In this document: one piece after another, positions 2,479 to 27,634 of the stretch
Layout of the letters: each line of letters starts with the position of its first letter
How positions within the stretch are numbered: the first letter of the stretch is position 1
IMG/VR virus record: IMGVR_UViG_3300033121_001167
Span: 1 to 64,000 of that record
Direction: 5' to 3' (one strand)
DNA from: a virus
Taxonomy: Duplodnaviria > Caudoviricetes
Length of the DNA stretch: 64,000 nucleotides
Program-made: the position numbers and the translations under genes
Notes under the pieces: generated by a model
Told to the model about the DNA's origin: nothing
What the model saw: only the letters and a program-made list of their open reading frames with translations
Database searches by the model: none

Positions 2479-3135
2479 TCACCGGGAGGCGAGGCGGAAG
2501 CCGACATGGATGAGGCGGAGCGTCGGCTCGCCGTAGTTGCGATTAGCAGAGCGGCAGCTCCGAGCATCGTTGTACCAGCTGCCGCCGCGAAGCACGCGGT
2601 ACCCGCCCGAATCCGGTCCAGTCGGGTTGACCTGCGTCTCGGCGGGGTAGTCGCCATACCAATCGTTGCACCATTGCCACACGTTGCCGCTCATGTCGTG
2701 GAGTCCCAGTTCGTTGGGCTTTTTTGTGCCAACAGGGTGGGTTTGGGCGCAATCGTACCAAGCGACTTCTTCCAAGTCGTTGCTTCCTGCGTACAAGTAG
2801 CCTTTGCTTTGAACGCCGCCACGAGCAGCGAACTCCCACTCCGCTTCCGTCGGCAAACGATATTGCCGGCCCGTCAACGAGTTGAGTTTTTGGATGAACT
2901 CCTGACAGTCGTTCCAACTCACATTTTCTACAGGTAAGTCATCGCCTTTGAAATGGCTGGGGTTGTTACCCATGACCGCAAGCCACTGTGCTTGCGTCAC
3001 AGGGTATTTTCCGATCTCAAAATCGGGCAGTGTGATTTCGTGCTGACGCTCGTCGTCGTGGCGACCGGCTTCGCTTTCCGGGCTGCCCATCAAAAACGTG
3101 CCGCCTTGGACAAAAATCATTTCTATTTCGTTCAT
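2479..3135 (-). CDS. FGE-sulfatase (C-type lectin fold) protein, putative DGR target, copy A
   Basis: YRLPTEAEWEFAARGG, LHDMSGNVWQWC, RVLRGGSW...GFRLA; lacks the catalytic FGE Cys pair. Confidence 0.95.
   Translation of the reverse strand: MNEIEMIFVQGGTFLMGSPESEAGRHDDERQHEITLPDFEIGKYPVTQAQWLAVMGNNPSHFKGDDLPVENVSWNDCQEFIQKLNSLTGRQYRLPTEAEWEFAARGGVQSKGYLYAGSNDLEEVAWYDCAQTHPVGTKKPNELGLHDMSGNVWQWCNDWYGDYPAETQVNPTGPDSGGYRVLRGGSWYNDARSCRSANRNYGEPTLRLIHVGFRLASR
2482..2619 (-). repeat. Putative DGR variable repeat VR-A
   Basis: 26 mismatches against 26963-27100, concentrated at codon positions 1-2 of NNC/NNT codons. Confidence 0.85.
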
Positions 3136-3217
3136 AATATCGTTTGTTTTAAAAATTATAGTACAAAGGTATGTCCAAGTTCAAATGTCTCCAAACATTT
3201 TGGTACTGTTAACTTTT
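2905..3217. repeat. Exact direct repeat, copy 2
   Basis: Identical to 1-313. Confidence 0.97.
3164..3195 (-). promoter_or_regulatory. Bacteroidota-type promoter of FGE copy A
   Basis: Minus strand TTTG-N20-TACCTTTG, 28 nt upstream of the ATG. Confidence 0.75.
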
Positions 3218-3228
3218 GATTAACACTA

Positions 3229-3408
3229 TCAATCATTTAAAACTTGCCTGTTGCCTTTAGTCTGCCATTCCTTCAACTTTTGAAGCGAAATAGTCAATTC
3301 AGACACATTGGTAGATGGTGGATTAGTCAGCCAAAATCGTGTGGGTCGGCGATTTTCTTGGATTGCGGTCAAATCCGTCGTTAGTATCCAAACCTTTATT
3401 GTTTCCAT
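3229..3408 (-). CDS. Small hypothetical protein, 59 aa (METIKVWILTTD...)
   Basis: Translated by hand; below the ORF-track cutoff; fills the gap. Confidence 0.4.
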   Translation of the reverse strand: METIKVWILTTDLTAIQENRRPTRFWLTNPPSTNVSELTISLQKLKEWQTKGNRQVLND

Positions 3409-3568
3409 TTTTTAACTCCGTTATTTTTTGGATGATCCCTGCATGATACAACTGAAGTTCTTCCATATATTGCTGAACTTCCAGATGTTCGTATTGAACT
3501 ACCCCGAGTTCTTTATACGCCTCATCCATTGTAAAATTATTAATATTGTGAAAAGTCAATTTCATCAT
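3323..3568 (-). CDS. Hypothetical protein (start re-called at MMKLTF)
   Basis: 3' part of ORF 3323..3715; the upstream part overlaps the HNH-like gene. Confidence 0.5.
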   Translation of the reverse strand: MMKLTFHNINNFTMDEAYKELGVVQYEHLEVQQYMEELQLYHAGIIQKITELKNGNNKGLDTNDGFDRNPRKSPTHTILAD

Positions 3569-4106
3569 CTTGTTGCGGTTCGTATTGTTCGTAAATTTTA
3601 GTTTGTTCATCTTTGTAGTATCCACCGACCGGACGCAATTTTCCATAATATGAATTATAACAATTGTGGCAAACCAATTCCACGTTTTCGCGCCTAAAAT
3701 CACGTCGGTCTCCATTTTTGAAAACTAATATTGTCGGAGAGGCATTATCAAATAATCTGCGTTCAGAATAGCCACAAATTCCGCATTCATCCAAAAATTC
3801 CCCATCTTCAATGATTCTACGCTTAAATTCAGATTTTGGAAGACTTGGATGTGTACCATTTAAAAGTTCTGTACCACTTAACCGATACCGTTTTTTGGTA
3901 TGTACTGATGCGCCTTTTCTATGGCGATGGAGTTCAAACAGGCTTTTTCCCGTCTCTGCATCAATTACCATCTTGGCGTATTTATTATAAACTGCACACG
4001 AAACATGTAAAAACCGGGCGGCCTGTGAGTTATTGCCACTGTTTCGCATTGCATACCGAATTTCAGATTCGGTCAAATTGTATCGGGGACTTTTCCAAAA
4101 ACTCAT
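3540..4106 (-). CDS. HNH-like zinc-finger protein with N-terminal HTH-like region
   Basis: CGICG...NGDRRDFRRENVELVCHNC; the canonical HNH His appears substituted. Confidence 0.6.
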   Translation of the reverse strand: MSFWKSPRYNLTESEIRYAMRNSGNNSQAARFLHVSCAVYNKYAKMVIDAETGKSLFELHRHRKGASVHTKKRYRLSGTELLNGTHPSLPKSEFKRRIIEDGEFLDECGICGYSERRLFDNASPTILVFKNGDRRDFRRENVELVCHNCYNSYYGKLRPVGGYYKDEQTKIYEQYEPQQDDEIDFSQY

Positions 4107-4378
4107 GCTGTTAATTTATCCTCAATTACATGTAAAAACCAAACACAACCAGAAAGAAACATCGTATTCAAAAACCAGTTTGTGTTGAGATTAAACTCTG
4201 GGAAAATAAGATGAACAAAAAAACTGACCCACACAGATGTGCACAAAAAACAAGTCAGCAATTTATACAAAAATGGAATACGAGTAACAAACATCATACG
4301 GAATGGTTTAAAAAGATAACTTTCGCTGATGATTTGAGTTATTTGATATATTACTACTAAAATGAATACTAAATTCAT
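4103..4378 (-). CDS. DUF1360-like membrane protein
   Basis: LLTCFLCTSVW motif and hydrophobic helices. Confidence 0.6.
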   Translation of the reverse strand: MNLVFILVVIYQITQIISESYLFKPFRMMFVTRIPFLYKLLTCFLCTSVWVSFFVHLIFPEFNLNTNWFLNTMFLSGCVWFLHVIEDKLTA

Positions 4379-4611
4379 GTTACTTCAAATGATAAATTAT
4401 TTTTTACTAATTTCGCAGTAATATTTTGAATTTCTTCTATCGTGCCTTCAAATATTTTACATTTCCCATATGATTTCAATCTTTCCACGATGATATTTGC
4501 TTGAATTGGCAGTAATTCCATTTCCACTTTTAAAAAATGCACAATTGCATCATCGGGCATTTGACCACTTTTTAAAGTAATGTTATATTTTTTGTCTTTA
4601 CAACATGCCAT
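4375..4611 (-). CDS. ClpS-like adaptor protein
   Basis: Size and pattern (...QANIIVERLKSYGKCKIFEG...NLSFEV) resemble the ClpS core. Confidence 0.45.
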   Translation of the reverse strand: MACCKDKKYNITLKSGQMPDDAIVHFLKVEMELLPIQANIIVERLKSYGKCKIFEGTIEEIQNITAKLVKNNLSFEVT

Positions 4612-4727
4612 AGATTTTCCATCACTTCTAATGCAGTGTTACCAAATTGTGCATATATGCGCTGGTCATTGAATCCAACCCATCCAAACCAACATTCATT
4701 ATGTTGTTTGATATTAAATTTTAGCAT
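4572..4727 (-). CDS. Small hypothetical protein, 51 aa (MLKFNIKQHN...)
   Basis: Translated by hand; spans the gap between neighbours. Confidence 0.35.
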   Translation of the reverse strand: MLKFNIKQHNECWFGWVGFNDQRIYAQFGNTALEVMENLWHVVKTKNITLL

Positions 4728-5196
4728 TTCTTTTCCTATGATTTTCCAATTCTTTCATCAATTGTCTCCCAACATCGTATGCGGGCGAATACCATGAAAG
4801 ATCGGGTTCTTTTTTTGGTTTTTCTTCTGGAGGAGGTTCCTCGTCGGCAGCAGGTTCTTCTTCTGAAGGTTCGGGCTTCTCCTCTTCTTCTGGAGGTTTC
4901 CCAGTCATTTGGGCATTTAGTTTATCCAACGTAATTAGCCTACCACCAGCCTTTATTTTAGTGATGTTGCGATAATCAAATTCAGTCGCATTCCCAAACT
5001 CATCATACCCGACACCACGTCTAAAATTTTCCAAGTCGCTCAAATCTGATATAATATACCAGTCATCATTTGCATACACTTTCAGTGATACTTGCTGGTC
5101 TATATATTGTGCCAAAAATTTATTATCAAAATAATACATCGTCCGGGTTTCCTTTGTTTCGGTAATTATCTTTTTTATTTGGTTTTTCAGCCTCAA
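4714..5196 (-). CDS. Hypothetical protein with Glu/Pro-rich linker
   Basis: 160-aa ORF; PPEEEEKPEPSEEE low-complexity stretch. Confidence 0.75.
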   Translation of the reverse strand: MRLKNQIKKIITETKETRTMYYFDNKFLAQYIDQQVSLKVYANDDWYIISDLSDLENFRRGVGYDEFGNATEFDYRNITKIKAGGRLITLDKLNAQMTGKPPEEEEKPEPSEEEPAADEEPPPEEKPKKEPDLSWYSPAYDVGRQLMKELENHRKRNAKI

Positions 5197-5274
5197 TCTT
5201 TTTGGGCTTCTTTTTAATTTTGATTTTGGTTGGTTCCTGTTCCCACCCTTCCAAATCGTCGTGGATATTGATTT

Positions 5275-5598
5275 TCATCTTATTTGATCAACTTTCTCCA
5301 ATTTTTTTAAAATTTGTTCAATCGTATATTTCTGACCATTTTTATTAAATATACGAGTTTTTTCCAAAATATCAGTTCGGTTTTGATTGACTAATTCTTC
5401 AAAAATTACATATCCCGCTCCGCGATTGAATGTAGTGCGATATTTAGACGAATCTGCAATTTTTGAAAATAAAAAATGCCCAAACTGGTTAATTTCATGT
5501 TCAACATCGTGTAAATTATCGCCCGGAAATGTAATATAAATTACAACATTTGGTTTATCCAACCACTCAGGTTTATTTTTGGTGTCCATCCTAAACAT
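5275..5598 (-). CDS. Hypothetical protein, 107 aa
   Basis: Co-oriented ORF. Confidence 0.65.
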   Translation of the reverse strand: MFRMDTKNKPEWLDKPNVVIYITFPGDNLHDVEHEINQFGHFLFSKIADSSKYRTTFNRGAGYVIFEELVNQNRTDILEKTRIFNKNGQKYTIEQILKKLEKVDQIR

Positions 5599-6446
5599 TT
5601 TTTTGCAAGTGAATTATCAGCACATACGAAGTTTGGTTCATTTCGTGCGGGCAAATTTCTACGAGGATACTCCTTCCCCCCAATCATGTCGCATAATTCA
5701 TTGATCGAATATGTAGTTCCAGTTCCGATGTTGAACACACCAGACTCATTATAATTTGCTGCTAACATGTTTGCTTCAATTACATCGTCAATATTTGTAA
5801 AATCTCGGCGTTGTTCACCATTCCCACAAATAGTAAATGGCAGGCCGTCATATTTTTGATTTAAAAATGTTTGAAGGGCTTGCATATATGGTCCTTCACT
5901 GGTCATGTAATTGCCATAGACATTAAAATATCTAAGTATTTTTCCTTTCAACCCAAAATGCTCGCTATAAAATTTAATGTAGTTTTCAGCCACTAATTTT
6001 TGCATTGCATAGGGGCTGGTTGGGTTTGGAGTGTCCGATTCTTTACTTGGAGTATTTTTGTTTCCATATACTGAACTACTACCAGCAAATATGAAATTAT
6101 TTAATCCAGCAGCGCGACATGCTTCCAGCGCAATTGTTGTGCCATGCACATTTGTAAGATCATACAATGGAATATTGTCAAACGATGGTTGAACCCTCGC
6201 TTTTGCGGCTAAATGAAAAAATGCGTCGGCACCATCAATTTGTTTAGCCAACGAAGTTACCTTCATTTTACCAATGTCGTAGTAATAAAATTTGATGTGC
6301 CGAAGTAAACCAGCATCCAATGTTTTTTGATCTGTGGTTGAATAATTATCATACCCAATGACAGTATGACCTTCATCCAGACATCTTTTCATTAGATGCC
6401 TTCCGATAAATCCACAACAACCTGTTATAACTATTTTTTTACTCAT
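5541..6446 (-). CDS. NAD-dependent nucleotide-sugar epimerase/dehydratase (extended SDR)
   Basis: ITGCCGFIG, HLAA, SSSVYG, YAMQK, RYFNVYG, RRDFT. Confidence 0.95.
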   Translation of the reverse strand: MSKKIVITGCCGFIGRHLMKRCLDEGHTVIGYDNYSTTDQKTLDAGLLRHIKFYYYDIGKMKVTSLAKQIDGADAFFHLAAKARVQPSFDNIPLYDLTNVHGTTIALEACRAAGLNNFIFAGSSSVYGNKNTPSKESDTPNPTSPYAMQKLVAENYIKFYSEHFGLKGKILRYFNVYGNYMTSEGPYMQALQTFLNQKYDGLPFTICGNGEQRRDFTNIDDVIEANMLAANYNESGVFNIGTGTTYSINELCDMIGGKEYPRRNLPARNEPNFVCADNSLAKKCLGWTPKINLSGWINQML

Positions 6447-6448
6447 TT

Positions 6449-8506
6449 TTAACCAATGAAAGTGAATGATTTTTCAGTACTACCACCTGTCGTAGCATAA
6501 TTAATTGTTAAAATATTTCCGTTTGATGCAGTTGCAAAATTTGAAATGCCCGATTCTGGATATTTTGCGACTGCATATATTTTATTTACACTCTCGTACC
6601 AGTCAAACATAAAAGTTTTTGTCGTTCCGGAACCAGTCGTCGTTAAATTGTAAATGGAGTCGGTTGGAACATTGCTTCCAGACAAATAAATATCAACTTT
6701 ATAATCTACAGATGTTTGTGCGCAATTTAACAATGACCCAGTAACACGATTTATGTTTTGGTTATAGGTTATATAATCCGATTTCCACGACGGTCGTTGT
6801 ATCGTGGAGGGTAACATTGTGCCTGTAAGCGGGTCAAAATATTTTAATTTAATTTGGTTCAAATATACTGGCTGATTAGTATAATTTATATACCAATTTA
6901 ATAAAAACGGCGTAATTCTCAATGACAACTCCGTAGAAAATCCAATAAAAGAACTGGCACCAAAAAACGATGCAGAAACGCCATTAGACCCGGTGCTGGC
7001 ATAATAAAATATTGGTGAACTTGGAGCAGTAGCTGAATTATACTGATTTATTGAAATAGGCGAGTGCATATAGTACGAAGTCTTAATATCGGACGATATA
7101 CTACGAGTTGGACTGAAATTCTGAGTAGTTAGAAGCGCCACTGGTGCAGTAGAAGACCCTGTGGAAAAGTAAATAATATTATTATGTCCATATACCCCAC
7201 TTGGTAATTTACTACTACTATAATTTAAAAGTAAGTACCCAGAATAACCTATATCCGAGATTGTCGCCTGGCCATATATTCCAAAATTTAAAGTATTATA
7301 TCCTGCACTTAATTGATAATTTGAACTTGTTGCTGCTTGAGAATCAAATCTATGGTTTATAGTTGCTGGGCCACCAATTGCAGTGGATGTTCTAATATTG
7401 CTGTTCCCATACGGATAATTGAATACATTATTGATTACAACCGATTTTGTATAACCCGCTGATACAATTGGCATAGTCAATATTATTGCAGAATGACACA
7501 TGGACGGATTCAATTCTGGTATTAAAAAATTACACACTCCATAAATAGATGTATTATATCCAGTGTTAAGTTTATAAAAATCCTCATTAAATGGTACCAT
7601 CATACTGGACATTATTTGTGTGCTCAAATCAGACCGATAAGTATATGTTATACACACAGTTGGGCTAACATCGGCAAATCGTTGCAAAGATGAACTTGCT
7701 TTCAGGGTATGTGCAGTTGATGTATCTAATGTCCCGCTGACATTCTGAATGTCAAAATAATATGTATCAGAAGCCATAGAATTTTGTAGAACGAATCTAG
7801 CACTCGTTGATCCAGAATCTATCTGCGTAACTAATCTCGTTGTTGTATCTAATGACCTTGCACTATCATACCCAGTATATTGTATCCATATATCTTTGTA
7901 ATCTTTTGTGGATTCTGGTAAAAATGTGTCAAATGCTGGAATATTGGTATATCCGCCAATAGTTTTTCCAAACACTTGCCTACCACCCGCTCCAGCAAAT
8001 AACCATTGCTGATTAAAATTATTAGTATCTAATGGTAGGCGAACAGTTTTTATATTTGTTACTACATCTGTGTCATCAAATTGATATGTTGCTATCAGTT
8101 TGAAACTATGTCCTGTCCACATCCCAGAATTGGCGGCTGGAAATGAAAACCGTGGGGATACAACATGAGATGACCCCGTAAAACGAGTATTAAATAAGTT
8201 TGTAAAATTTTGTTTGTAAAATAATGTTGCATGATCTCCAGTCCCATTTATTGTTGATGTTGCTGCGGGAGCACCGCCCAAATTGCCATCAACCGAACAT
8301 GAAAAAGCGTAATTAGCAACACTCGCAATTGTTGTACCTGTATTAGCATCCCGCAAGTACATCTCTATATCTACACATAAAAAAGTCCGACTTCCAGTTT
8401 CTGGTATAAAAACTTGTTTATTTGATCCTGAGACTACAATAGAACCGCTTTGAGCAGATGTCAACGTTTCCCATCCATACTCAACCGTATTAATTCTGAA
8501 AGCCAT
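6449..8506 (-). CDS. Large Ser/Thr/Asn-rich beta-strand protein, probable virion/tail component
   Basis: 685 aa with a composition typical of tail proteins; adjacent to a tail-fibre-like gene. Confidence 0.55.
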   Translation of the reverse strand: MAFRINTVEYGWETLTSAQSGSIVVSGSNKQVFIPETGSRTFLCVDIEMYLRDANTGTTIASVANYAFSCSVDGNLGGAPAATSTINGTGDHATLFYKQNFTNLFNTRFTGSSHVVSPRFSFPAANSGMWTGHSFKLIATYQFDDTDVVTNIKTVRLPLDTNNFNQQWLFAGAGGRQVFGKTIGGYTNIPAFDTFLPESTKDYKDIWIQYTGYDSARSLDTTTRLVTQIDSGSTSARFVLQNSMASDTYYFDIQNVSGTLDTSTAHTLKASSSLQRFADVSPTVCITYTYRSDLSTQIMSSMMVPFNEDFYKLNTGYNTSIYGVCNFLIPELNPSMCHSAIILTMPIVSAGYTKSVVINNVFNYPYGNSNIRTSTAIGGPATINHRFDSQAATSSNYQLSAGYNTLNFGIYGQATISDIGYSGYLLLNYSSSKLPSGVYGHNNIIYFSTGSSTAPVALLTTQNFSPTRSISSDIKTSYYMHSPISINQYNSATAPSSPIFYYASTGSNGVSASFFGASSFIGFSTELSLRITPFLLNWYINYTNQPVYLNQIKLKYFDPLTGTMLPSTIQRPSWKSDYITYNQNINRVTGSLLNCAQTSVDYKVDIYLSGSNVPTDSIYNLTTTGSGTTKTFMFDWYESVNKIYAVAKYPESGISNFATASNGNILTINYATTGGSTEKSFTFIG

Positions 8507-8507
8507 A

Positions 8508-9446
8508 CTATGTTAAAATTTTTAAAATTAAATTTACCCGTGTAACTGTGGAAACGCTGTCCACATTAAATCTAATTACATCACCAGAACTTACGGTTTT
8601 AGTCCATGTCGTTAAATTTGTGTCAGAATTTGATGCCGCAGCACTTAATGTAGGTTTCTCCGATCCTGCAATGCTGTCTAAAACAGTCGGTGGAAAATTT
8701 GCAAATACGTCCTTCCAAACATCAATCACAATTGATCCTGCTTGGTCGGCAGTTAAATACCAAGCATTTATATATCCGTTAAATGGAATTGTTATATCCC
8801 CTTTAATTCCAGTAGTGATCACGCTACCTCCGCCATCAATCGTCAAGCCAACTGTTTTAATTTCTTGAAAATATGAAGCAGTCATTGCCGTATTCGCAAA
8901 ACTGGCACTAACACTCGGACTACCGGGAGCATAACTGGCCGATATTGCATACGAAGACGTTAGATATGTTCTAATTGTTCCTACATCTGCAATGGATCGG
9001 TCATTTGATTTTAAAAAACTTCCGTAATCATATCCATACTGAATTCCAAATTTATTACTACTTCCATCAAAAAATTTAGCAGTATCGCTTACACCATCCA
9101 ACGAAAAGATGTAAAATTCATCACCAGACTTTAGCCCTTTTATGATGGTCTGTTCGTTTGTGATATAAACAGCATAATTTGCATCTCCATATACACCAAA
9201 TTCTGAATTAAACGGCATTTTGAACTGCAAACCTCCGCTGATGATCGCCTGAACATTGGGTGCAGTTGTACCACTTCCACCATATATCCCACCACCTGTT
9301 GCAGCATAACTGGCAGATGTAGCAATGATTCCAGTCAATGCACTGCCATTACCCACAAACGCAGATGCAGTTACAGAATTTTCAACAAACAAATTTTGCA
9401 GTTCCGCATCACTTCCAGACCGAACTAACTTCTGCCATGTACTCAT
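8508..9446 (-). CDS. Tail-fibre-like protein
   Basis: SASYA/SASFA/TASY repeats; C-terminal IDGGGSVITTG...GSIVIDVWKD...GDVIRFNVDS module. Confidence 0.7.
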   Translation of the reverse strand: MSTWQKLVRSGSDAELQNLFVENSVTASAFVGNGSALTGIIATSASYAATGGGIYGGSGTTAPNVQAIISGGLQFKMPFNSEFGVYGDANYAVYITNEQTIIKGLKSGDEFYIFSLDGVSDTAKFFDGSSNKFGIQYGYDYGSFLKSNDRSIADVGTIRTYLTSSYAISASYAPGSPSVSASFANTAMTASYFQEIKTVGLTIDGGGSVITTGIKGDITIPFNGYINAWYLTADQAGSIVIDVWKDVFANFPPTVLDSIAGSEKPTLSAAASNSDTNLTTWTKTVSSGDVIRFNVDSVSTVTRVNLILKILT

Positions 9447-10723
9447 TATTTATTTTTAACTACGATTAGTTCGTTTTCATAATGCTCAAGTCGTTCAATA
9501 TTCAACTTCAAATTTCCCAGCTCCATGTAACCATATTCACCACTATCAGTCAAAATTTGAGATAGTAATGTAATATACTGAAAATCAGTCTGTGTGAACG
9601 TGTTTCCATCAATTTCAACGATGATGCCGGGAATTTTAAATGTTCCAGTAGGATTTATTTTGAGGTTTAAATCGCACCACGTCGTGTTTGGCTGTTCCTT
9701 TGCGATATATTTGCTTATTTCGGGTTGATTCAAATCACACACCAACGAATCACACCAAGGCTCCAGTGTTTGCAATAATTGGTAGTAACAATTTGTTATT
9801 TTGAAGCCGATGTTATATTTGTGCGAGATGATTGGATGTAAATACTCATCATGTTTAACCATTGACCCCCATTTCCTTATAAAATTTCGGGTTGATCGGA
9901 TATTTTGTTCCTCCCACTCGGGACTATTTGTTCCGACTTCTGTAAGATTCGGATTGAATCTGCTGCCTCTACAAGTTAAATGATAGACAAACCCATCCCA
10001 AGTTTGTATAAAGCAGTTTTTTCCAAATTTTAATTTGAATCTATTGAATATGTCGCTGTCTTCCTTTGATTGCGGTGCATACAATGGGTCGTGTCCACCG
10101 ATTTCTTTAAATTCATCTACCCAGAATGCCCACGGCGCAAATACTCCGTAAGTTATTTTTTCATGTATATAATTTTCTCGGTATATTTTAACCAAATCTA
10201 AAAGCGAATCTTCGTCAAAATTTTCAGGTTCTGTGCCAAAATCATCTACTAATTTTTCTGGACCGGATGGATGTAGTGGCGGTTCTATTCGGGTGAGAGA
10301 GACAATCCGGTTTTTATTTTTTATTGGCTTTGAAGCGAATGAAGAAACCGTCATACCAGATGGATATTGCTCACGTTTAAATTTCCAGTCATACATCAAT
10401 CTGTCAATTGCATCCAACGCATTTGGGCAAAGGTACATATCACTATGGAATATCATTGCAACTTCAGTTTCCACAATTTCATTTATAATTCGGTCATACA
10501 TAATGGTATGACCCAACCGCTTACCAGTTGTATTTTCTATTGATTTTACAAATGGATCAATTTTCTTTATTTCTTCAATCCACTCCCGTGTCCCGTCCTC
10601 ACAATGATCAATTCCATAACAAATCCAAACTTCATGGTCGCCTTGATTTTTACGGATAGAATCATAGGACCATTTCAAGTATTTAAGATTGTTCCGGGTG
10701 GATACTACTAAACTAATTTTCAT
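9446..10723 (-). CDS. Glycosyltransferase family 2
   Basis: ISLVVSTRNN, DHCEDGT, FHSDMY, EDSDIF. Confidence 0.9.
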   Translation of the reverse strand: MKISLVVSTRNNLKYLKWSYDSIRKNQGDHEVWICYGIDHCEDGTREWIEEIKKIDPFVKSIENTTGKRLGHTIMYDRIINEIVETEVAMIFHSDMYLCPNALDAIDRLMYDWKFKREQYPSGMTVSSFASKPIKNKNRIVSLTRIEPPLHPSGPEKLVDDFGTEPENFDEDSLLDLVKIYRENYIHEKITYGVFAPWAFWVDEFKEIGGHDPLYAPQSKEDSDIFNRFKLKFGKNCFIQTWDGFVYHLTCRGSRFNPNLTEVGTNSPEWEEQNIRSTRNFIRKWGSMVKHDEYLHPIISHKYNIGFKITNCYYQLLQTLEPWCDSLVCDLNQPEISKYIAKEQPNTTWCDLNLKINPTGTFKIPGIIVEIDGNTFTQTDFQYITLLSQILTDSGEYGYMELGNLKLNIERLEHYENELIVVKNK

Positions 10724-11013: not shown

Positions 11014-11058
11014 CCCTCTTTTGGGACGACTTGGACGTATTCATTTGGTTGGATTATT

Positions 11059-19065: not shown

Positions 19066-19895
19066 TATTTTAAGATTAGTGGAGCAATGATGTCAAAATT
19101 GACTTTAAACGATGATGTTGGTTTGATTGGTAAGTTCAGTTCGGAACCAATCCTTAACAATGTATCTTTTTTGACTGCATACAGTTCTTTTTCGGTTTTA
19201 AACAACATCTTGCACACGTCTAAAAACGATTTGGGAGACGGGTGCGCGGTCTTTGGATAAACTGAAGCCATAAATTGTCTATCAACAACGGACAATTCCG
19301 TATTTTCCTTTGTCGCAAATCCATCCATTGTCCAACTTGCTGGAAATGGGTACATCATAATAGATGATGTATCAGCTTCTGTCCCATTTGTTTGATCTTT
19401 GCTGTATTTATCCAGCACATTGTGACGAATGGTCGCTACATTCCAAGAATTGGGCGGTTTACTCAAGTCTTTGATAACATTTGCTTCATTCCATTTAATG
19501 CCACCTTTTGGATTTTGGTGTTCATGCCCCATACCAATCGCATGCCCAAATTCGTGGAGGACAACTCCTTTATCCAACCATCCCAGATTCAATGTTGGTT
19601 GGTTGGTTGGAATGTCCCTTGCATCGGTACCAATGTAAGACCATGCGCCATCGTTCTCATCAAATGCTACTCTAATTTCACTATTTACGTCTTCACTTCT
19701 AACAAATTGCAAATTTACTACATCCATCCAATCCTTTAGCGCATTCATCACAAATTGTTTTTGCGATTCTGTACCTTCCATAAATTTTACCCGCAGTTTT
19801 TGCCCGTTTGTCCAATATTTTTCTGGAAATGTGACGGCTTCTGCTGAACGAGAAGTTAACTGGATTGGTAATTCTTTATCAATACAAAATTTCAT
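19065..19895 (-). CDS. Metzincin zinc metalloprotease (astacin/M12A-like)
   Basis: HEFGHAIGMGHEH and SIMMY Met-turn; AWSYIG. Confidence 0.92.
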   Translation of the reverse strand: MKFCIDKELPIQLTSRSAEAVTFPEKYWTNGQKLRVKFMEGTESQKQFVMNALKDWMDVVNLQFVRSEDVNSEIRVAFDENDGAWSYIGTDARDIPTNQPTLNLGWLDKGVVLHEFGHAIGMGHEHQNPKGGIKWNEANVIKDLSKPPNSWNVATIRHNVLDKYSKDQTNGTEADTSSIMMYPFPASWTMDGFATKENTELSVVDRQFMASVYPKTAHPSPKSFLDVCKMLFKTEKELYAVKKDTLLRIGSELNLPIKPTSSFKVNFDIIAPLILK

Positions 19896-19984
19896 TTGTT
19901 ATTCTCCCAAAAATTATAAGTGTGTATATTAAAAGTAGTGATAAAACACTACAAAACAAAATTACGTCTAAAACTGCTGACCAT

Positions 19985-20227
19985 TTAACGGTTTTCATAA
20001 TTTTGACTTAGTTTAATGGCCTTTTTTATATTATGATCTGATAAGATGAAAATTAAATCGGAAATGTTAGTCCAAAAACACTTACCAGTCGTCTTAGTGG
20101 ATATTTTTGCACGATCTTCAAAAACATACTCCAAGACAAATCGCATTTGAGGTTTGGTCTGCCATTTTGTGTGGTAATTACAGCCAATTACAATGCTGGA
20201 TTCGGTGAAGTTATGAATCAATTTCAT
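19985..20227 (-). CDS. Hypothetical protein, 80 aa
   Basis: Co-oriented ORF. Confidence 0.55.
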   Translation of the reverse strand: MKLIHNFTESSIVIGCNYHTKWQTKPQMRFVLEYVFEDRAKISTKTTGKCFWTNISDLIFILSDHNIKKAIKLSQNYENR

Positions 20228-21000
20228 GACAAACGCAACATGGTGGTTTGGCAGTTATCATACAAATATTCGTAAGTTTTTTTAAGCCAATGATTTACGT
20301 TTTTCACACCACCTTCCATCGCATTAAAATGGTAAATTCCCGGAATATCAGTAAATAACATTCGGTCATCTAAAATATTCTTCCTTGATAAATCCTGCAT
20401 GTTAAACTGGTAGGGAAGCAATTTCACATAAATATCATTTTCGTTGGTAATTAAGTTGCAAATTGGCTGGTCAGTTCCGACCCCGTACTTCTTTTGCACT
20501 TCACGAACCTTTGAATCATTTTCCCAATAAAAATCCATCAACTTTTCGTGGAATAGTATGAAGGTCGGGTTCGTTATCATAAATCCAGTATTGAAATATT
20601 TCCAAATATCAAATTTCTTAGTAAAATGGGTTGGAAACTCGTGTTGATAGTTTTCAATGCTTCGTATAATCCAATCATAGTCTCCATCATTATGAACTGC
20701 ACAGAAATTATGGTCGCTCAATTCAAAGAAATTTGGGCAATGGGGATGGACAATCGTATCAGCATCAACTAAACAAACCTGATCCACGGCTTCACCTGCA
20801 AGCAATTTATGCCAGTAATGTCGGAAGTAAATCGGACTGACGGATTCCAATGGAAACAACGGCTCGTCTAATACCCGTAGTTCGCATTTATTTGCGTTAC
20901 ACCACACTTTCCATGACTCAATGGAGTATTTATACCCCTCCGAACTTTGGGGCTTGTGTGGGCTATTTATTGCGGTTATAAGAACGAAGTTATTTTTCAA
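20224..21000 (-). CDS. Glycosyltransferase, GT8-like
   Basis: LVDADT, YFNTGF, DQPICN, FNMQ, IYHF. Confidence 0.85.
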   Translation of the reverse strand: MKNNFVLITAINSPHKPQSSEGYKYSIESWKVWCNANKCELRVLDEPLFPLESVSPIYFRHYWHKLLAGEAVDQVCLVDADTIVHPHCPNFFELSDHNFCAVHNDGDYDWIIRSIENYQHEFPTHFTKKFDIWKYFNTGFMITNPTFILFHEKLMDFYWENDSKVREVQKKYGVGTDQPICNLITNENDIYVKLLPYQFNMQDLSRKNILDDRMLFTDIPGIYHFNAMEGGVKNVNHWLKKTYEYLYDNCQTTMLRLS

Positions 21001-21322
21001 TTTTATTACTCGGTTTATAAATTACACTTACTTCGGATTCTACCCAACAAACACTATCTTCATCAAATTTCCAACCCATCTCGTATGGAGTATAATTCGG
21101 ATGACTTTGTAATGCCCAATCAAACCCGATGAGTTTGCGATTAAATTCTTGAACTGCCCATATTTTGTACCAATATGGTTCAGGTCGCTCATTTTTAATA
21201 TATATCGGATCGTAATCTTCTGTAATTAGACGGAATATGCTATTGAAGATGGGAGTTCCGTCCTCATTTAAATTGGATGGGTGGGTCTGGATGTAATCCA
21301 ATAAAAATTGTTTTGCTGTCAT
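20990..21322 (-). CDS. Hypothetical protein, 110 aa
   Basis: Co-oriented ORF. Confidence 0.6.
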   Translation of the reverse strand: MTAKQFLLDYIQTHPSNLNEDGTPIFNSIFRLITEDYDPIYIKNERPEPYWYKIWAVQEFNRKLIGFDWALQSHPNYTPYEMGWKFDEDSVCWVESEVSVIYKPSNKIEK

Positions 21323-21489
21323 ATTGAAGTGTAAATTAAATATGCAATTAATGTAATTACAAATGATGTTAGTACATTGCGATAGTATATAACAATGCTT
21401 ATGTCGGGCATCATCCGAAGAGTTTTCAAAGACCTAAAATACATCCCAACATTACAAAGGATAAATAAAATAATGAACCAATAAACCAT
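21319..21489 (-). CDS. Small membrane protein, 56 aa (MVYWFIILF...)
   Basis: Translated by hand; two hydrophobic segments; ATGA coupling to the next gene. Confidence 0.5.
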   Translation of the reverse strand: MVYWFIILFILCNVGMYFRSLKTLRMMPDISIVIYYRNVLTSFVITLIAYLIYTSI

Positions 21490-21594
21490 TTAAAATGTTT
21501 GTTTTAGTGTTGTACGGCGAAATTTATAGCATATAATTAAAAATGCTATACCACCAAGAATCATAACAACGTCTTCGGTAATAATGTAGTGCAT
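21490..21594 (-). CDS. Small membrane peptide, 34 aa (MHYIITEDV...)
   Basis: Translated by hand; TAAATG coupling. Confidence 0.4.
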   Translation of the reverse strand: MHYIITEDVVMILGGIAFLIICYKFRRTTLKQTF

Positions 21595-21622
21595 ATTTTT
21601 TCCTTTTATTTAGTTAAAAATT

Positions 21623-22705
21623 TCATTTCAACATATTATTTAATTCTTTGGAAATATGGACACACGTTGCAATTTTTCCACTGAATATGGAATATAATTG
21701 ATTGTTGTGCTTTGTTATATAACTTGGGCGACCATCATCCTGTTCTCTGTTCGGAAGAACTGTCCGAACTGTGAACATTGAGCCAGCATAATATACATTA
21801 TCACTTGCAAAATTTGGTCGCTTTTCAGTTGTTGGAATTGTTGGACTGCCATTAAAATTGAAAAAGTCGCGGCTGGCATTGATTATTTGCTTATGATTTG
21901 AGTTAGTGTATCCTTTTGTAATACCACAATTCAAATATGGGCGAATTTCAGAAGGAACTGTAAAAAACTTGCCGACTTGCCGTTCATGTATTGCTTCCTT
22001 TACATGCCCCATAATGTGGTAATATTCATTAAACCCATGCGGATCAATACAACAAAACTCCCCATCCATAATTACCGCAGATTTTCCTTTCCATTCTCGC
22101 CCAACCGAAATAACGGGCTTTTCACACAATTCAAATTGATAATCAATATGGTCATCTTCTGATAGTAAGAAATTCAAATTTGAATAGGTGCAATTTATTA
22201 CAACATCAAATTCTGACATCATTTGTTTTGTGAATTGAGTATTTAATTTCACATCTATATTACACTTCCGCAATTTTTCGTTACAAATTAAATACAATTG
22301 CGCAATATCAAATGAATTTTCATGCACTTTGACGATCAAATCTAAATTTTCACATTTCAACAAATCAAGATTTTGAATTATTTCGTAATCAAGTTTGCTT
22401 GTTTCTAAAAATGTCAGGTATTGTTCTTTATCGGTCAGTGAATTGTTGGACGCAATCGCATAATATCTATCAACTCCGTGATTGACTATACACCCATCAA
22501 ATTCACGTTCAAATTCTTGGGTGGATTGTATCATTTCGTTTGAACGTGGATAATGGTATCCTCTATGCAATCTGTACTGATTACATCCACTTGCTGAATT
22601 TAAAATTCCAGACGACATTTCAAACAAAGTGATGTTGTGCCGTTCTGAAAGTTTTATCGCAGATGTAATTCCAAAAATTCCTGCTCCAACAACTGCTATT
22701 TTCAT
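21623..22705 (-). CDS. FAD-dependent oxidoreductase (DAO-like)
   Basis: KIAVVGAGIFG, RLHRGYHYPRS, SGKIAT. Confidence 0.9.
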   Translation of the reverse strand: MKIAVVGAGIFGITSAIKLSERHNITLFEMSSGILNSASGCNQYRLHRGYHYPRSNEMIQSTQEFEREFDGCIVNHGVDRYYAIASNNSLTDKEQYLTFLETSKLDYEIIQNLDLLKCENLDLIVKVHENSFDIAQLYLICNEKLRKCNIDVKLNTQFTKQMMSEFDVVINCTYSNLNFLLSEDDHIDYQFELCEKPVISVGREWKGKSAVIMDGEFCCIDPHGFNEYYHIMGHVKEAIHERQVGKFFTVPSEIRPYLNCGITKGYTNSNHKQIINASRDFFNFNGSPTIPTTEKRPNFASDNVYYAGSMFTVRTVLPNREQDDGRPSYITKHNNQLYSIFSGKIATCVHISKELNNMLK

Positions 22706-22749
22706 ATATCAATTCCACTCTAAATAGTATTCCAGAAAAATTTATACAT

Positions 22750-23145
22750 TTATTTTCTTAACGTTAAAGGCACTCTGGCCTGTATTGAAAAAATAGGTTG
22801 ATCCCGATAATAATCTACATTTATCAATAGACATTCTTTCCAATGTATTTCAAGATTGAGAGGAGTTATGTACCCTTTACCAACAGTATAATACATTGGA
22901 GGAAGTGCTACAAATACACTGAAATCCTTCACTTTAAATGCCCTAATCGCAAATTTCAAATCAATTCGGTGGTAATTGTCCAAATTACTATTTACAGTCA
23001 ATCTTGCAAACGCAATTTTTACATTAGACTCTGCATGGGCATTAAACATCCACGGGTCTTTGTCGGAAACAGTAAACCCGCCAAACACTTTATCTTGTGC
23101 AAGTGCAAGATTTGAAAGCAATAGAAAAAATGCGATTAGTCTCAT
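22750..23145 (-). CDS. Exported beta-strand-rich protein, possibly outer-membrane
   Basis: Signal peptide MRLIAFFLLLSNLALAQ; alternating hydrophobic strands. Confidence 0.5.
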   Translation of the reverse strand: MRLIAFFLLLSNLALAQDKVFGGFTVSDKDPWMFNAHAESNVKIAFARLTVNSNLDNYHRIDLKFAIRAFKVKDFSVFVALPPMYYTVGKGYITPLNLEIHWKECLLINVDYYRDQPIFSIQARVPLTLRK

Positions 23146-23919
23146 TTATACATATTTCGTTTTAATTAAATTCCAAACATCTTGCATTACCTGAACTCGC
23201 TGCTCAATAGGAAATCCAGTGAAATGCCATATTTTCCCATATTTTAGAAAATGCGGCCAAGTTCGTTCATCTTCCATAACAAACTGGTTCGGAAAAAGTT
23301 GCCAGTTGTTTATGAACATATTTTTTTTATGGATTGAAAGCAAATTCCATTCCGGAGTTAATAACTCAACCTCAACATTTAGTTTTTGAATTACAAAATT
23401 CAACAAGGTTTGCTCCTTACCTCCACCTACGATTGAGTCTATTTCAGATTGTCTGTTTAAATACAACCAACACAGTTCTTCAAATACTTTTAGGTTAGCC
23501 TTCCCGAAAAACAAAACTCCGGCGTTTAGATATTTAAACACATCCAATTTGACATTTGGGAAGAAATGCTGTCGCTGTCCAATGGATGAATACAGCCAAT
23601 TCAAGTCACACAAATCGTTTACACCGTACATTTTGTCAGGTTCAATTTGGTCAAAAATGTTTGGAGCATCCCAGCGGATCATCGTATCACTGTCAACAAT
23701 TCCGATTTTATCATAACCAACACCTTTTTGATAAATTAATTCCTTGGTCCATATAGGGTAAGTAAACCGCTTATCGTGCTCAGTACAAACAACCAAGTCA
23801 ATGTTGTGGTTTTTACAATAGTATTCCCACGTTTTAAGCGAATATACTGCATAATCCGAACATTGGATTTGTTTGGATGGGTCGTTTATGTTGACGATAT
23901 ATACGAGGGTTTTACTCAT
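23146..23919 (-). CDS. Glycosyltransferase, GT8-like (paralog of 20224..21000)
   Basis: IVDSDT, YLNAGV, EQTLLN, EWNL, IWHF. Confidence 0.85.
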   Translation of the reverse strand: MSKTLVYIVNINDPSKQIQCSDYAVYSLKTWEYYCKNHNIDLVVCTEHDKRFTYPIWTKELIYQKGVGYDKIGIVDSDTMIRWDAPNIFDQIEPDKMYGVNDLCDLNWLYSSIGQRQHFFPNVKLDVFKYLNAGVLFFGKANLKVFEELCWLYLNRQSEIDSIVGGGKEQTLLNFVIQKLNVEVELLTPEWNLLSIHKKNMFINNWQLFPNQFVMEDERTWPHFLKYGKIWHFTGFPIEQRVQVMQDVWNLIKTKYV

Positions 23920-24348
23920 TCAGTGCAATTTATGAAATTCGTTAATTGAATCAGATACATTTTCAACTTCAGTCACTACAAATGAATCCCATGTTGATTG
24001 TTTTATTCGCAATCTATACCACTGTTCCAATTGCATTTTATTGCTTAAAAATAATTGGTTTGGCTTCTTAATTAACTTCTTCAACAATCTTGGCTGAAAA
24101 TATTGGCAGGATTGGATTGAAGTTATTTCTATCTCCACACCATATTTGCTATATGGCGACTCGTGACAATATGCGACGAGTTCCAAATGATTTTGTTTTA
24201 ACTGTTCGGTATCTTCGTAGTGCATCAGTAAAAATGATATATTGTTATACTTAACATGAGTACAATGAACCAAAACAGTATCCACAAATGCGCGTTTAGT
24301 TCTTCTCGTTCCATAGAATGTTATACGTTTCATCAAACGTTTCCACAA
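23920..24348 (-). CDS. Hypothetical protein
   Basis: Co-oriented ORF. Confidence 0.55.
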   Translation of the reverse strand: MWKRLMKRITFYGTRRTKRAFVDTVLVHCTHVKYNNISFLLMHYEDTEQLKQNHLELVAYCHESPYSKYGVEIEITSIQSCQYFQPRLLKKLIKKPNQLFLSNKMQLEQWYRLRIKQSTWDSFVVTEVENVSDSINEFHKLH

Positions 24349-24562
24349 ATGAACCTAAGCAAACCAAACCAAGAAACACTACAAGTGTTTTACCAAGGAA
24401 ATGCCATTTAAACGGGTCTGGTTCGTTGCTTATAAAATAGCAAATACCATACGTCAGCAAAAATATCACAAAGTACAATACCAATGTTATTAAAAATGCA
24501 ATTAATGATTTCATTTTACAAAATTTTAATTTAGGTAATTTATGTGGGTTTCCAATAACCAA
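24296..24562 (-). CDS. Small membrane protein
   Basis: Two hydrophobic helices. Confidence 0.55.
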   Translation of the reverse strand: MVIGNPHKLPKLKFCKMKSLIAFLITLVLYFVIFLLTYGICYFISNEPDPFKWHFLGKTLVVFLGLVCLGSFVETFDETYNILWNEKN

Positions 24563-24791
24563 TTACACTCTTAACATTGTTATGATAAGCAGTGATAGTT
24601 CCTGTTTCAAATTTAATCGGGCTAAACACAAATCTGGTATAATTTGCATCTATTAATTCCTTCATAAACTCCACAGTTTCAAACTCGTCATCGCTCAGTT
24701 CATACCAATTTTGAGGTTTTGGTGATGGGCACCCATTCGTGTCAAGCAGTATCCCAACTGTATCAGATCGGCATATAATCAGTCTTTTCAT
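24540..24791 (-). CDS. Hypothetical protein, 83 aa
   Basis: Co-oriented ORF. Confidence 0.55.
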   Translation of the reverse strand: MKRLIICRSDTVGILLDTNGCPSPKPQNWYELSDDEFETVEFMKELIDANYTRFVFSPIKFETGTITAYHNNVKSVIGYWKPT

Positions 24792-25741
24792 CTTACAAAA
24801 TTTGGATGGTTGTGAATATGTTTTGGGTGGGGAACATCAATAAATTTGGCAAACTGTCCTTCGTCTTGTCTCGATGGCCTAATCATGACTTTTTTTGAGG
24901 TTGGTAATGGGCGGAGAACAAATTCAGTTCCTTCGAGCGAATCTGCCCATTTTTTGTGAACAAAATTATCTGAATTGTATCGTATTTTTTCCAATCCAGT
25001 TTCAAAGTCCTTCCAATACTGAGGATCGCTCCGATAAATGAGTTCATACCGAAGTTCCTTCCATTTGCCATTGACAAACCACGGATAATGTCGTACCCAA
25101 AACTTATCTGTGTATTTGAGTAATGGATAATTTTGCGACATAAATCCATCCATTGCCCGTCTGTAATTTTGCATATTATCAAAACAGTAACAAAAACGAC
25201 GGAATTTTGGGCTGACTTCGTTGATTGCTTCGCAATAATACTGCGTTTCAAGAAAGTCTCTCCAAACGCATTTTAGTCCTTCGCCGGGCATCAATTTTGA
25301 GATTTCCTCGCTAATAACATCTTTGTCTAATTCGTAAAGGAACGCATCCGGTTCCAATGGAAAAATGATTGTTCCTTCACTGACAAACGATTCTAAACCG
25401 TGTGTTATAGCATTCAAAAAGCATATATTTGCATCATAATTCTTATAGTCAATAATTTTACATTCAATATGTGGCAATTTGCCATCACCATCAAATTGGT
25501 TCCGTGTATATTCGGAAACAATATCTAACGTCATTTCATAATCAAATCCAGCATTGGTGTCTTCATAACACCATTTTTTGCGAAATTGGCTGTCAATCTC
25601 TTTCTTATTTTCAACGCCTCCCGGAAAAATACCAGTGTTTATAATTATTACATCGGGTTCAATTACATCTATCATGTTCTGAATCCAATACTTCAAGAAA
25701 TGGCTGCTGGCAAATTCTGGAATTATGACAATTTTTTTCAT
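24788..25741 (-). CDS. Glycosyltransferase-like protein (GT-A)
   Basis: IVIIPEF start and IFPLEPDAF (DxD-like); cluster context. Confidence 0.5.
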   Translation of the reverse strand: MKKIVIIPEFASSHFLKYWIQNMIDVIEPDVIIINTGIFPGGVENKKEIDSQFRKKWCYEDTNAGFDYEMTLDIVSEYTRNQFDGDGKLPHIECKIIDYKNYDANICFLNAITHGLESFVSEGTIIFPLEPDAFLYELDKDVISEEISKLMPGEGLKCVWRDFLETQYYCEAINEVSPKFRRFCYCFDNMQNYRRAMDGFMSQNYPLLKYTDKFWVRHYPWFVNGKWKELRYELIYRSDPQYWKDFETGLEKIRYNSDNFVHKKWADSLEGTEFVLRPLPTSKKVMIRPSRQDEGQFAKFIDVPHPKHIHNHPNFVR

Positions 25742-25971
25742 TGTATCTGCGTTATTTTATAGCAATTGTAATTCACATACGGATCCTCAAACTCATCAAC
25801 CTCCGCCTCATCCACTGCAACTAACAACTCCATAGAAATCAAGTTTTGAGCAATATATTTAGCCACAGTACATTTAAGCGCATCAAGTGTGATTTGTTGC
25901 TCTTCGTACACAACATCAAGATCAATATCAAGTTGTATTTTCATAAATGTATAACTCCAATCCCTCCCCAC
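25738..25971 (-). CDS. Hypothetical protein
   Basis: Co-oriented ORF. Confidence 0.45.
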   Translation of the reverse strand: MGRDWSYTFMKIQLDIDLDVVYEEQQITLDALKCTVAKYIAQNLISMELLVAVDEAEVDEFEDPYVNYNCYKITQIQ

Positions 25972-26591
25972 ATTTGATCTAAGTCGTTGGTGTCTGGATA
26001 GACTATTTCAGAGGTTTTATACTTCCCGCTTGCTTTCAATTCCTGCCAAAACTCACCGACATAAACATTTCGGTCATGGTGTCGTTTGGAGATTTGGATG
26101 TCGTGGAATGCAACAATGCCACCTTTCCGTACAAATGGGGAATAATCTATCCAGTCTAACTTAACTCCGTTGTATGAATGATCCCCGTCAATGAAGAGAA
26201 AATCAATAAATGGCTTAGTGGTTTTAGAACCAGATAGTGATAATAATTCGGCTTGAGTTGCGGTGCTGTGACTATTTCCACGAATGAACTTACAATTCTT
26301 AAATTTAGTTTTGAACCATTCATCCCGATCATCCATTTCCTTCTCGCTGATCCCTCCGTGAATTCCGCCATCACTTACATCAATTGAAATGTTCAGTCCA
26401 TCCCAATTAATAGAATTCCACAAATAGAAAGTTCCGCCATACTTTGTCCCGATTTCCAGAATGTTGTATGGTTGAGTTGTATCGCGGCCGTCAAAGTGAC
26501 GAGAGACTAAATCATACAATTCAGTTATTTCCTGACGGATTTGGGGCATATAAAGTGAATATGCTGTGTTTATATTATGTTCGTTATTCAT
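25941..26591 (-). CDS. Class I SAM methyltransferase (Methyltransf_24)
   Basis: ILEIGTKYGGT, LFIDGDHSY, GGIVAFHD. Confidence 0.92.
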   Translation of the reverse strand: MNNEHNINTAYSLYMPQIRQEITELYDLVSRHFDGRDTTQPYNILEIGTKYGGTFYLWNSINWDGLNISIDVSDGGIHGGISEKEMDDRDEWFKTKFKNCKFIRGNSHSTATQAELLSLSGSKTTKPFIDFLFIDGDHSYNGVKLDWIDYSPFVRKGGIVAFHDIQISKRHHDRNVYVGEFWQELKASGKYKTSEIVYPDTNDLDQMWGGIGVIHL

Positions 26592-26835
26592 TAGTTTCTT
26601 TAAATATTTTCATCAGTACATCCGAGCCTCCACACACTTCAAAATTAGTTTGAGCGTCCCGAAAATCGTACTGAGCCAAACGTGTTTGGGTTTTAACGTG
26701 TGCAAGAATATCATCTACATTATCAAGCGCAGATACAGTTGACAATAAAGTCAGCATCGTCGTCTCCACTTTATCGGCGACATTAAGACGAATTAACATA
26801 TCAACTTGTTCGTCGGTAAACTGATTGTAGCACAT
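26584..26835 (-). CDS. Hypothetical protein, 83 aa
   Basis: Co-oriented ORF. Confidence 0.55.
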   Translation of the reverse strand: MCYNQFTDEQVDMLIRLNVADKVETTMLTLLSTVSALDNVDDILAHVKTQTRLAQYDFRDAQTNFEVCGGSDVLMKIFKETNE

Positions 26836-26865
26836 AATTAAATTTTTGTTTTAACATTCGTCATC

Positions 26866-26959
26866 CATCATACTTCGCTGTCGGTCGCCCACGACCTCTT
26901 TGCTTGTATGACTCATTTCATTTTTTTTTGCTCATAATGCTACGCAGATAACCCCTGAC
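26866..26959 (-). promoter_or_regulatory. Conserved non-coding element after the FGE stop (putative DGR IMH plus hairpin), copy B
   Basis: Near-identical to 2387-2478; hairpin at 26883-26896. Confidence 0.75.
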
Positions 26960-27634
26960 TCACTGGAGGGCGAGGCGGAAGCCAACATAGTAGGCACGGA
27001 TCGTCGGCACGAAGTTGCCGAGATCAGCGGAGCGGCAGCGCCGAGCATCGATGCTCCAGCTGCCGCCGCGAAGCACGCGGAGCCCGCCCGAATCCGGTCC
27101 TGTTGGGTTGATCTGCGGCTGCGGCTCGGATGGGTAGTCTCCAGACCAATCTTGGCACCATTCCCACACGTTGCCGCTCATGTCGTGAATACCGAGTTCG
27201 TTGGGCTTTTTTGTGCCTACCGAGTGGGTGCGTAAGTTGGAGTTTTTATACCGCCAAGCGACTTCGTCCAAGTCGTCGCTGCCAGCGTATTTATATCCGT
27301 TGGAATAAATGCCTCCACGAGCAGCGTATTCCCATTCCGCTTCCGTTGGCAAGCGGTACGCTTTGCCCGTTAGCATGTTGAGTTTTTGGATGAACTCCTG
27401 ACAGTCGGTCCAACTGACATTTTCTACGGGCAAGTCATCACCCTTGAAATGGCTGGGATTGTCACCCATGACCGCAGCCCACTGTGCTTGCGTCACTGGG
27501 CATTTTCCGATGTAGAAGTCGGAAAGTGTGACTTCGTGCTGGGTTTCGTCGTCGTAGCGCCCGACTTCGTTCTCTGGGCTTCCCATCATAAACGTACCGC
27601 CTTGGACAAAAATCATTTCTGGCTCAAAATTCAT
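26960..27634 (-). CDS. FGE-sulfatase (C-type lectin fold) protein, putative DGR target, copy B (start re-called at MNFEPEMIF)
   Basis: Paralog of 2479..3135; the longer ORF start at 27697 runs through the promoter. Confidence 0.95.
   Translation of the reverse strand: MNFEPEMIFVQGGTFMMGSPENEVGRYDDETQHEVTLSDFYIGKCPVTQAQWAAVMGDNPSHFKGDDLPVENVSWTDCQEFIQKLNMLTGKAYRLPTEAEWEYAARGGIYSNGYKYAGSDDLDEVAWRYKNSNLRTHSVGTKKPNELGIHDMSGNVWEWCQDWSGDYPSEPQPQINPTGPDSGGLRVLRGGSWSIDARRCRSADLGNFVPTIRAYYVGFRLALQ
26963..27100 (-). repeat. Putative DGR variable repeat VR-B
   Basis: Aligns without gaps to 2482-2619. Confidence 0.85.

Follow-up and report, generated by a model that had tools for sequence, protein, structure and literature searches.

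The window analyzed here comprises the first 64 kb of a 79,249-bp IMG/VR record of a virus of the Caudoviricetes (IMGVR_UViG_3300033121_001167; the whole record is hereafter G0) and contains two complete genes, A and B, and the 5' part of a third, C, each encoding a small stand-alone protein of the FGE-sulfatase/C-type-lectin type (Table 1). Two further copies, a and b, are found on a 127-kb IMG/VR contig (G1) that we assign to the same phage below. The C-terminal repeats of A, B, a, and b carry the mutation signature of a diversity-generating retroelement (DGR), and the phage probably carries, on its large genome, an orphan multi-copy array of DGR targets fed by an external retroelement. The reading frame of gene B extends further upstream, to a TTG at 27697, in the open-reading-frame (ORF) list, and database protein P0004 is identical to its product.

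Aligned without gaps, the last 46 codons of A and B contain 26 mismatches in 19 codons, exactly as counted in a sequence-only reading of this DNA; the mismatches are distributed 12/11/3 over the three codon positions, and of the differing codons 16 are altered exclusively at positions 1-2 and the other three exclusively at the third position. Upstream of the GPDSGG motif the two genes show the ordinary drift that this reading had described, with 28/17/46 variable sites by codon position as well as a 9-nt and a 6-nt indel. The pattern in the repeats of A and B is real and far beyond chance. Among the four repeats of A, B, a, and b there are 34 variable sites (16/15/3 by codon position), 13 of which are occupied by three or four different bases.

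A scan in which the phage repeat served as an adenine-filled pattern yielded a genuine DGR template of the same repeat class in a metagenome-assembled genome (MAG) of Candidatus Fermentibacteria (L032), an unrelated organism, where it lies directly after an RVT_1 ORF (E 2e-18). Adenines of this independent, reverse transcriptase (RT)-adjacent template coincide with 27 of the 34 variable sites of the phage repeats (Fisher p 1.5e-14), and its AAC codons match phage variable codons -32, -31, -30, -27, -22, -20 to -18, -14, and -12 to -10. The A-to-N restriction expected of a DGR is therefore seen by proxy, on the Fermentibacteria template and not on a cognate one. No adenine is present at the 86 invariant sites of five close phage repeats, compared with an A content of 27% at such sites in the gene body. 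Protein-level selection cannot be the source of a pattern that coincides with template adenines in this way, and, together with the structural match to TvpA described below, these observations bear out the proposed DGR-type adenine mutagenesis. In the Fermentibacteria contig (L032:1-8000) the RT-template pair adjoins a large N6/N4 methylase gene and a ResIII helicase gene, and no FGE target is found in that 8 kb.

The repeats also share a framework. Comparison of A, B, a, and b together with the copies of the sister strain gives third-position differences of 3-8% in the repeats vs 26-28% in the gene bodies (Fisher p 0.0004-0.016), and this homogenization relative to the bodies indicates that the repeats have one recent common framework. 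Two framework classes can be distinguished in the pairwise table. Class I includes A, B, a, b, L017_b (gene b of a genome 95% identical to that of the phage), and the gene on a non-phage contig, L016, with 0-3 third-position differences in 41 codons, and class II includes the genes found at loci A and B in the sister strain, which have three such differences from each other and 10-13 from class I. The near-uniform third positions of A and B agree well with the earlier proposal of one template for both; the cognate template itself has not been found and is not the phage's own, so that a single template remains a likely source by inference, and the sister strain has a second framework.

Pfam domain PF03781 covers residues 5-216 of the 218 residues of protein A. 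The closest solved structure to the A and B proteins is that of a DGR variable protein, Treponema denticola TvpA (PDB 2Y3C, E 6.6e-36), with an alignment that extends through RVLRGGSW...GFRLA. As in DGR variable proteins of the CLec1/FGE-sulfatase class, the variable repeat is C-terminal and lies inside the C-type-lectin/FGE fold; CLec1 variable repeats (VRs) within an FGE-sulfatase domain form category b of Wu et al. 2018 (PMC5758913). Neither a signal peptide nor an attachment domain is evident. A catalytic FGE/SUMF1 enzyme would need two active-site cysteines (C-x4-C region, as in LCHESYC), of which A and B have one; alignment to the FGE chain 5nxl_A shows the second Cys only (SCRSA), the position of the first being a variable residue. 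A receptor-binding target of the Mtd type can also be rejected, as the Pfam domain fills the protein and an N-terminal tail-fiber or virion attachment region is absent. The neighbors of the FGE genes are lysis, nucleotide, and glycan genes; tail genes are not among them. An AlphaFold2 model of protein A from a 20-sequence alignment was unusable (pLDDT 35). On balance, A, B, C, a, and b appear to be small cytoplasmic TvpA-like FGE/C-type-lectin proteins with a presumed binding role.

Table 1. Features of the FGE/C-type-lectin loci in the window, in order of position
Feature	Position	Strand	Remarks
Copy C, third FGE/C-type-lectin gene, 5' part (77 codons)	1..231	-	truncated at contig start
Promoter/leader region of copy C	232..313	-	identical to that of A
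Stem-loop after the tail of A	2344..2379	-	GCACTTATCC...GGATAAGTGC then TTTTTT (sense strand); read from sequence
Distal post-stop tail of A, imperfect hairpin	2387..2441	-	outer stem GUCAUAC/GUAUGAU, inner GGUCG-UGGG-CGACC
Proximal post-stop tail of A, 37 nt	2442..2478	-	GTCAGGGGTTATCTG...GAGCAAAAA; kept in A, B, G1_a, C, L016
Gene A, stand-alone FGE-sulfatase/C-type-lectin protein, 218 aa	2479..3135	-	PF03781 E 1.5e-54; third-position GC (GC3) 68%
Variable repeat of A	2482..2619	-	
Promoter region of A	3136..3217	-	TTGAAC-18-TATAAT at 3184..3155; core CATACCTTTGTACTATAATTTTTAAAACAA common to B, C
Post-stop tail of B	26862..26959	-	proximal 26923-26959, distal hairpin 26862-26922; 3 differences from that of A in 95 nt
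Gene B, stand-alone FGE/C-type-lectin protein, 224 aa from MNFEPEM	26960..27634	-	PF03781 E 5.1e-53
Variable repeat of B	26963..27100	-	
Promoter region of B	27635..27700	-	

Each of A, B, and C is preceded by an AT-rich promoter region with a sigma-70-like match. Positions 1-313 of the window, where the promoter and the first 77 codons of copy C lie, are 100% identical to 2905-3217. Between the 313-nt repeats of C and A lie an Amidase_2 gene (881-1561) and a gene for a 199-aa protein (1558-2157), and because this lysis region is flanked by identical direct repeats, its deletion or inversion is possible. Judged by its T-run, the stem-loop downstream of A is likely the transcription terminator of that gene. 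Directly downstream of copy a (L031:461-3613) are genes for a PP2C-like phosphatase and a protein-kinase-like protein, followed by PhoH, a possible signaling context for copy a.

The stop codon of these genes is followed by a tail of ~95 nt with 3-4 differences among A, B, and G1_a, vs 82% identity of the genes themselves. It consists of a proximal block, which is also present in the GC-rich L016, and a distal hairpin. Homology in both C and L016 stops exactly after GAGCAAAAA, and this common end suggests the 3' boundary of the rewritten unit. In addition, variable codons -3 and -2 have conserved sequence on both sides, which implies that the rewritten unit reaches past the stop codon. The proximal tail is thus a probable 3' end of the retrohomed unit, similar to an initiation of mutagenic homing (IMH) element. 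Folded as DNA, the distal tail reaches -8 kcal/mol, with z scores of -3.0 (the hairpin of A) and -2.3; one U-A to U-G change leaves the inner stem intact, covariation is minimal, and Rfam returned sub-threshold chance matches only. The arrangement resembles the IMH-plus-hairpin of phage BPP-1, by analogy, an IMH/IMH* pair being definable only with a template.

G0 and G1 overlap at the DNA level in FGE genes only, apart from their ends. The last 245 nt of G0 and the first 245 nt of G1 match at 99.2%, within a 168-nt tandem repeat that accounts for the assembly break and joins the two contigs; this repeat lies in a coding region (G0 78,750-79,249, beyond the window, and L007 1-322). Both contigs end within FGE genes at the other junction, which is spanned by sister-strain contigs from ENA (94-96% identical). 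One of these (L018) runs from G0-like sequence through the complete gene C to the start of the next FGE gene, and another (L043), which overlaps the first by 313 nt at 100%, begins in the repeat of C and runs through gene b into G1-like sequence; the complete gene C followed by b in tandem is found in L018, L022, and L043. CheckV completeness is 41% for G0 and 69% for G1. Joined at these ends, G0 and G1 are a predicted circular map of ~206 kb with five FGE copies.

No candidate for an RT was returned at E<=10 by a six-frame search of G0 and G1 with PF00078 (RVT_1), and the ~206-kb map contains no RT-like ORF with a YxDD motif. A PF05635 search of the map for Avd was likewise empty at E<=10; some DGRs lack Avd (PMC5758913). 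The template expected by the sequence-only reading was not found in G0 and G1 by word-7 blastn plus nhmmer --max, and a self-repeat search around the FGE genes at seven other loci also revealed no template. An RT cassette hidden in an assembly gap at the C/b junction can be dismissed, as the sister-strain contigs cover this junction completely. The absence of RT, Avd, and template from the phage map indicates that the retroelement lies outside the phage.

The composition of the FGE genes points in the same direction. GC3 is 61-69% in the phage FGE gene bodies vs 26-31% in phage genes, and an origin of the GC-rich genes in assembly chimeras is ruled out because assemblies made independently in several projects have them at the same loci. 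A non-phage contig of 1.9 kb, L016, which is 59% GC throughout and whose ENA accession falls in the ERZ7245xx series, like those of the sister-strain phage contigs, encodes an FGE protein whose gene body is only 68.5% identical to the phage genes; yet it agrees with them at 82 of the 86 framework sites and in the first 37 bases after the stop codon. This agreement of framework and tail despite a diverged body indicates that the same template, or one nearly identical to it, has been at work in a GC-rich genome other than that of the phage. No relative closer than 60% was found for the L016 protein, and the two other ORFs of the contig have no Pfam match. A perfect 20-nt palindrome at the contig end (L016:1844-1885) is Illumina adapter, an assembly artifact. 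The closest named bacterial relatives of the phage proteins (60-65% identity) are Bacteroidota, namely Lewinellaceae, Bacteroidales, Alistipes, and Prevotella, several of them fused or adjacent to TIR, caspase, or NACHT/iSTAND genes. No RT was found within 8 kb of the FGE genes in these relatives.

Comparison of samples and strains indicates how the repeats change. Protein P0006 recurs unchanged on 11 contigs and P0008 on 14, from several samples, and between the window and L030, whose identity is 98.5% across 9.7 kb, the repeat of B shows only a single changed variable codon (ATC/TAC) and a single third-position difference. Sequences also move between loci: L031 is 99.1% identical to locus a, yet has the repeat and 3' half of A, the repeat of G1_b is found at locus C in the sister strain, and the locus A genes of two strains differ at 30% of third positions on a backbone that is 94% identical. 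L017_b and G1_b have flanks 95% identical and differ in 13 repeat codons, mostly 3' of codon -28, and some database protein clusters combine identical N-termini with different repeats. Taken together, the repeats look mostly static between samples and shuffled among loci. In the sister strain, only ~70 nt separate b from C (L018:13061-13862, L043:1-930), and this spacer corresponds to the final ~35 nt of the gene situated before copy a in G1. Its origin implies duplication of a segment that begins 42 nt before an FGE gene, with the new copy joined to the tail of C exactly at the GAGCAAAAA end.

We propose that the C-terminal repeats of ~120 nt in A, B, C, a, and b were written by a DGR, in which a template RNA would be reverse-transcribed with errors at adenines and the cDNA would take the place of the repeat as far as a recognition element immediately downstream of the stop codon. 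The retroelement would most likely reside in a bacterium of ~59% GC, the probable host, or in another element in that cell, with homologous targets of its own. The favored route is that FGE cassettes were captured from, and repeatedly exchanged with, this GC-rich gene family by recombination, and that the captured cassettes were then shuffled among the five phage loci. We consider this account, in which the diversity was made by an off-phage DGR, the probable one because of the foreign GC3, the framework shared with L016, the slow turnover of the repeats, and their shuffling among loci. A host-encoded or co-resident DGR might instead retrohome directly onto phage DNA during infection, using the conserved tail as a docking site and varying the five binding proteins. 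The tail is indeed better conserved than the genes and combines a block common to L016 with a hairpin, the conserved sequence around codons -3 and -2 fits rewriting across the stop codon, and avd, TR, and brt are able to act in trans from a plasmid (PMC5758913); the 3'-weighted codon differences between L017_b and G1_b are what partial homing would give, and protein clusters with constant N-termini and different repeats also fit. Against it stand the static repeats of P0006 and P0008 and of B, the identical repeats at different loci, which indicate recombination, and the clean assembly of contigs across the repeats, and direct homing cannot explain why whole gene bodies remain rich in GC and have been replaced between sister strains. 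We therefore regard it as a less probable, though not negligible, route.

There are two other explanations. The lineage may have recently lost a DGR cassette of its own, or kept it in a strain variant, so that the repeats are decaying fossils; static repeats, the few third-position differences accumulated in them, and the location of most phage DGR targets within 50 kb of a phage-borne RT (PMC5758913) would agree with this. Yet no cassette is present at any assembled junction in G0/G1 or in the ENA sister strain (94-95% identical), no related IMG/VR contig has a template, and a history within the phage would leave unexplained both the GC3 of 61-69%, against 30% for the genome, and the framework shared with L016, which makes such a loss very unlikely. 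Still more improbable is that no retroelement was involved and that the paralogs were diversified by selection at ligand-contact residues with a framework kept uniform by gene conversion. Gene conversion among the copies is demonstrable and the FGE C-terminus is the ligand-binding region across the family, but selection on the protein would not fix synonymous third positions, keep adenine out of every invariant site, or place most variable sites on adenines of a template from an unrelated organism, and gene conversion would homogenize the variable sites as well.

Several points weigh against capture from an off-phage DGR. The three C/T third-position differences between A and B are not explicable by adenine mutagenesis. 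The cognate template was not found by pattern scans of IMG/VR, a metagenome collection, and a 185,579-species genome collection, which covered the repeat anchors in IMG/VR, the degenerate framework in IMG/VR and the metagenomes, the post-stop tail in the genomes and IMG/VR, and the adenine-filled template, the last of which matched two bacterial templates only, both unrelated; nor was a cognate template or RT found in 401 genomes of the order of a Lewinellaceae MAG. L016 is a single contig of 3.8x coverage with no close relatives, its tie to the phage host is circumstantial, and phage and host would differ by 26 GC points, which would be extreme. Finally, G0 and G1 possibly come from different samples, and their assignment to one genome is based on the end overlaps and the sister-strain bridges.

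The system most similar to the phage genes is TvpA of Treponema and its DGR, which has remote targets. Both lack the catalytic cysteine pair of FGE, and one template serves several targets; over half of the targets of this category are stand-alone domains. There, however, RT and template are in the same genome, and the phage has neither; in addition, the targets of the window are in an AT-rich, lytic-type jumbo phage in which they are compositionally foreign. With the BPP-1 system (Mtd, TR, Avd, Brt) they share a phage-borne C-type-lectin variable protein, adenine-specific variation of the NNC type, and a conserved element and hairpin 3' of the repeat, although the hairpin is ~60 nt beyond the stop codon here and directly after the IMH in BPP-1. 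The BPP-1 cassette lies as a whole beside a single tail-fiber target, unlike the five stand-alone targets of this phage, which have their own promoters and neither an N-terminal virion-attachment domain nor a cassette. Wu et al. expected phage targets near a phage-borne RT, but noted that the machinery works in trans (PMC5758913).

The phage genome, large and near-complete, has five targets of the DGR type but none of the machinery, which indicates that the diversity was made elsewhere, probably in the host of the phage; the same framework recurs in a non-phage GC-rich contig. Because DGR catalogs start from the RT, traveling target arrays without an RT are invisible to current surveys, and in a 2021 review none of 224 jumbo phages was reported to have FGS/FGE domains (PMC7824862). 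It thus becomes testable whether a cellular DGR can diversify genes of a virus during infection or whether viruses take up what host hypermutation has produced. One preprint describes DGR-diversified putative antigen sensors in multicellular bacteria (10.1101/2023.09.22.558884), and the phage proteins resemble these, as well as Microcystis TIR-FGE proteins, in that their bacterial relatives are linked to TIR, caspase, and NACHT/iSTAND genes; they differ in being the sensor domain only, with no effector domain. This suggests that the phage FGE proteins are sensor-domain mimics of host immune receptors. A bolder combination, in which a lytic jumbo phage with DGR targets but no DGR borrows the host RT and template during infection via a docking tail and the five rewritten, effector-less copies of the hypervariable TIR/caspase/NACHT-linked FGE sensors of the host act as decoys for, or dominant-negative inhibitors of, this immune sensing, seems doubtful to us.

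Isolated phages of Microcystis, for which the host is known, provide a parallel. The DNA polymerase of the window is closest to that of Microcystis phage Mel-JY01 (39% identity), and the complete genomes of Ma-LMM01 and MaMV-CH01 (genus Fukuivirus; L037 and L036) encode two and four stand-alone FGE genes, respectively, annotated as 'kinase' or hypothetical, and no RT. In the last 60 codons, most differences between orthologous FGE genes of Microcystis phage isolates are at codon positions 1-2. TIR-FGE proteins encoded by tandem genes of the host M. aeruginosa (L042, CP134413.1) are, in their FGE part, 75-80% identical to the phage FGE proteins and variable at the same positions; at third positions the phage and host genes diverge by 22-23% in the body and by 10-12% in the repeat. 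Like the phage studied here, these are large myophages with stand-alone FGE genes and no RT; they differ in a more decayed signature, and their FGE proteins are 43-48% identical to those of the window. No publication in the searchable literature links the FGE genes of Ma-LMM01 or MaMV to DGRs, and FGE genes of RT-less cyanophages as effector-less copies of host TIR-FGE appear to be undescribed there.

A different phage of 39% GC (L026; ENA ERZ28615622 scaffold_219) also encodes an FGE protein, of 230 aa (8734-9426), with no RT or template in the 19 kb examined. Seven database variants of this gene are near-identical outside the repeat, and four different repeats occur among them.

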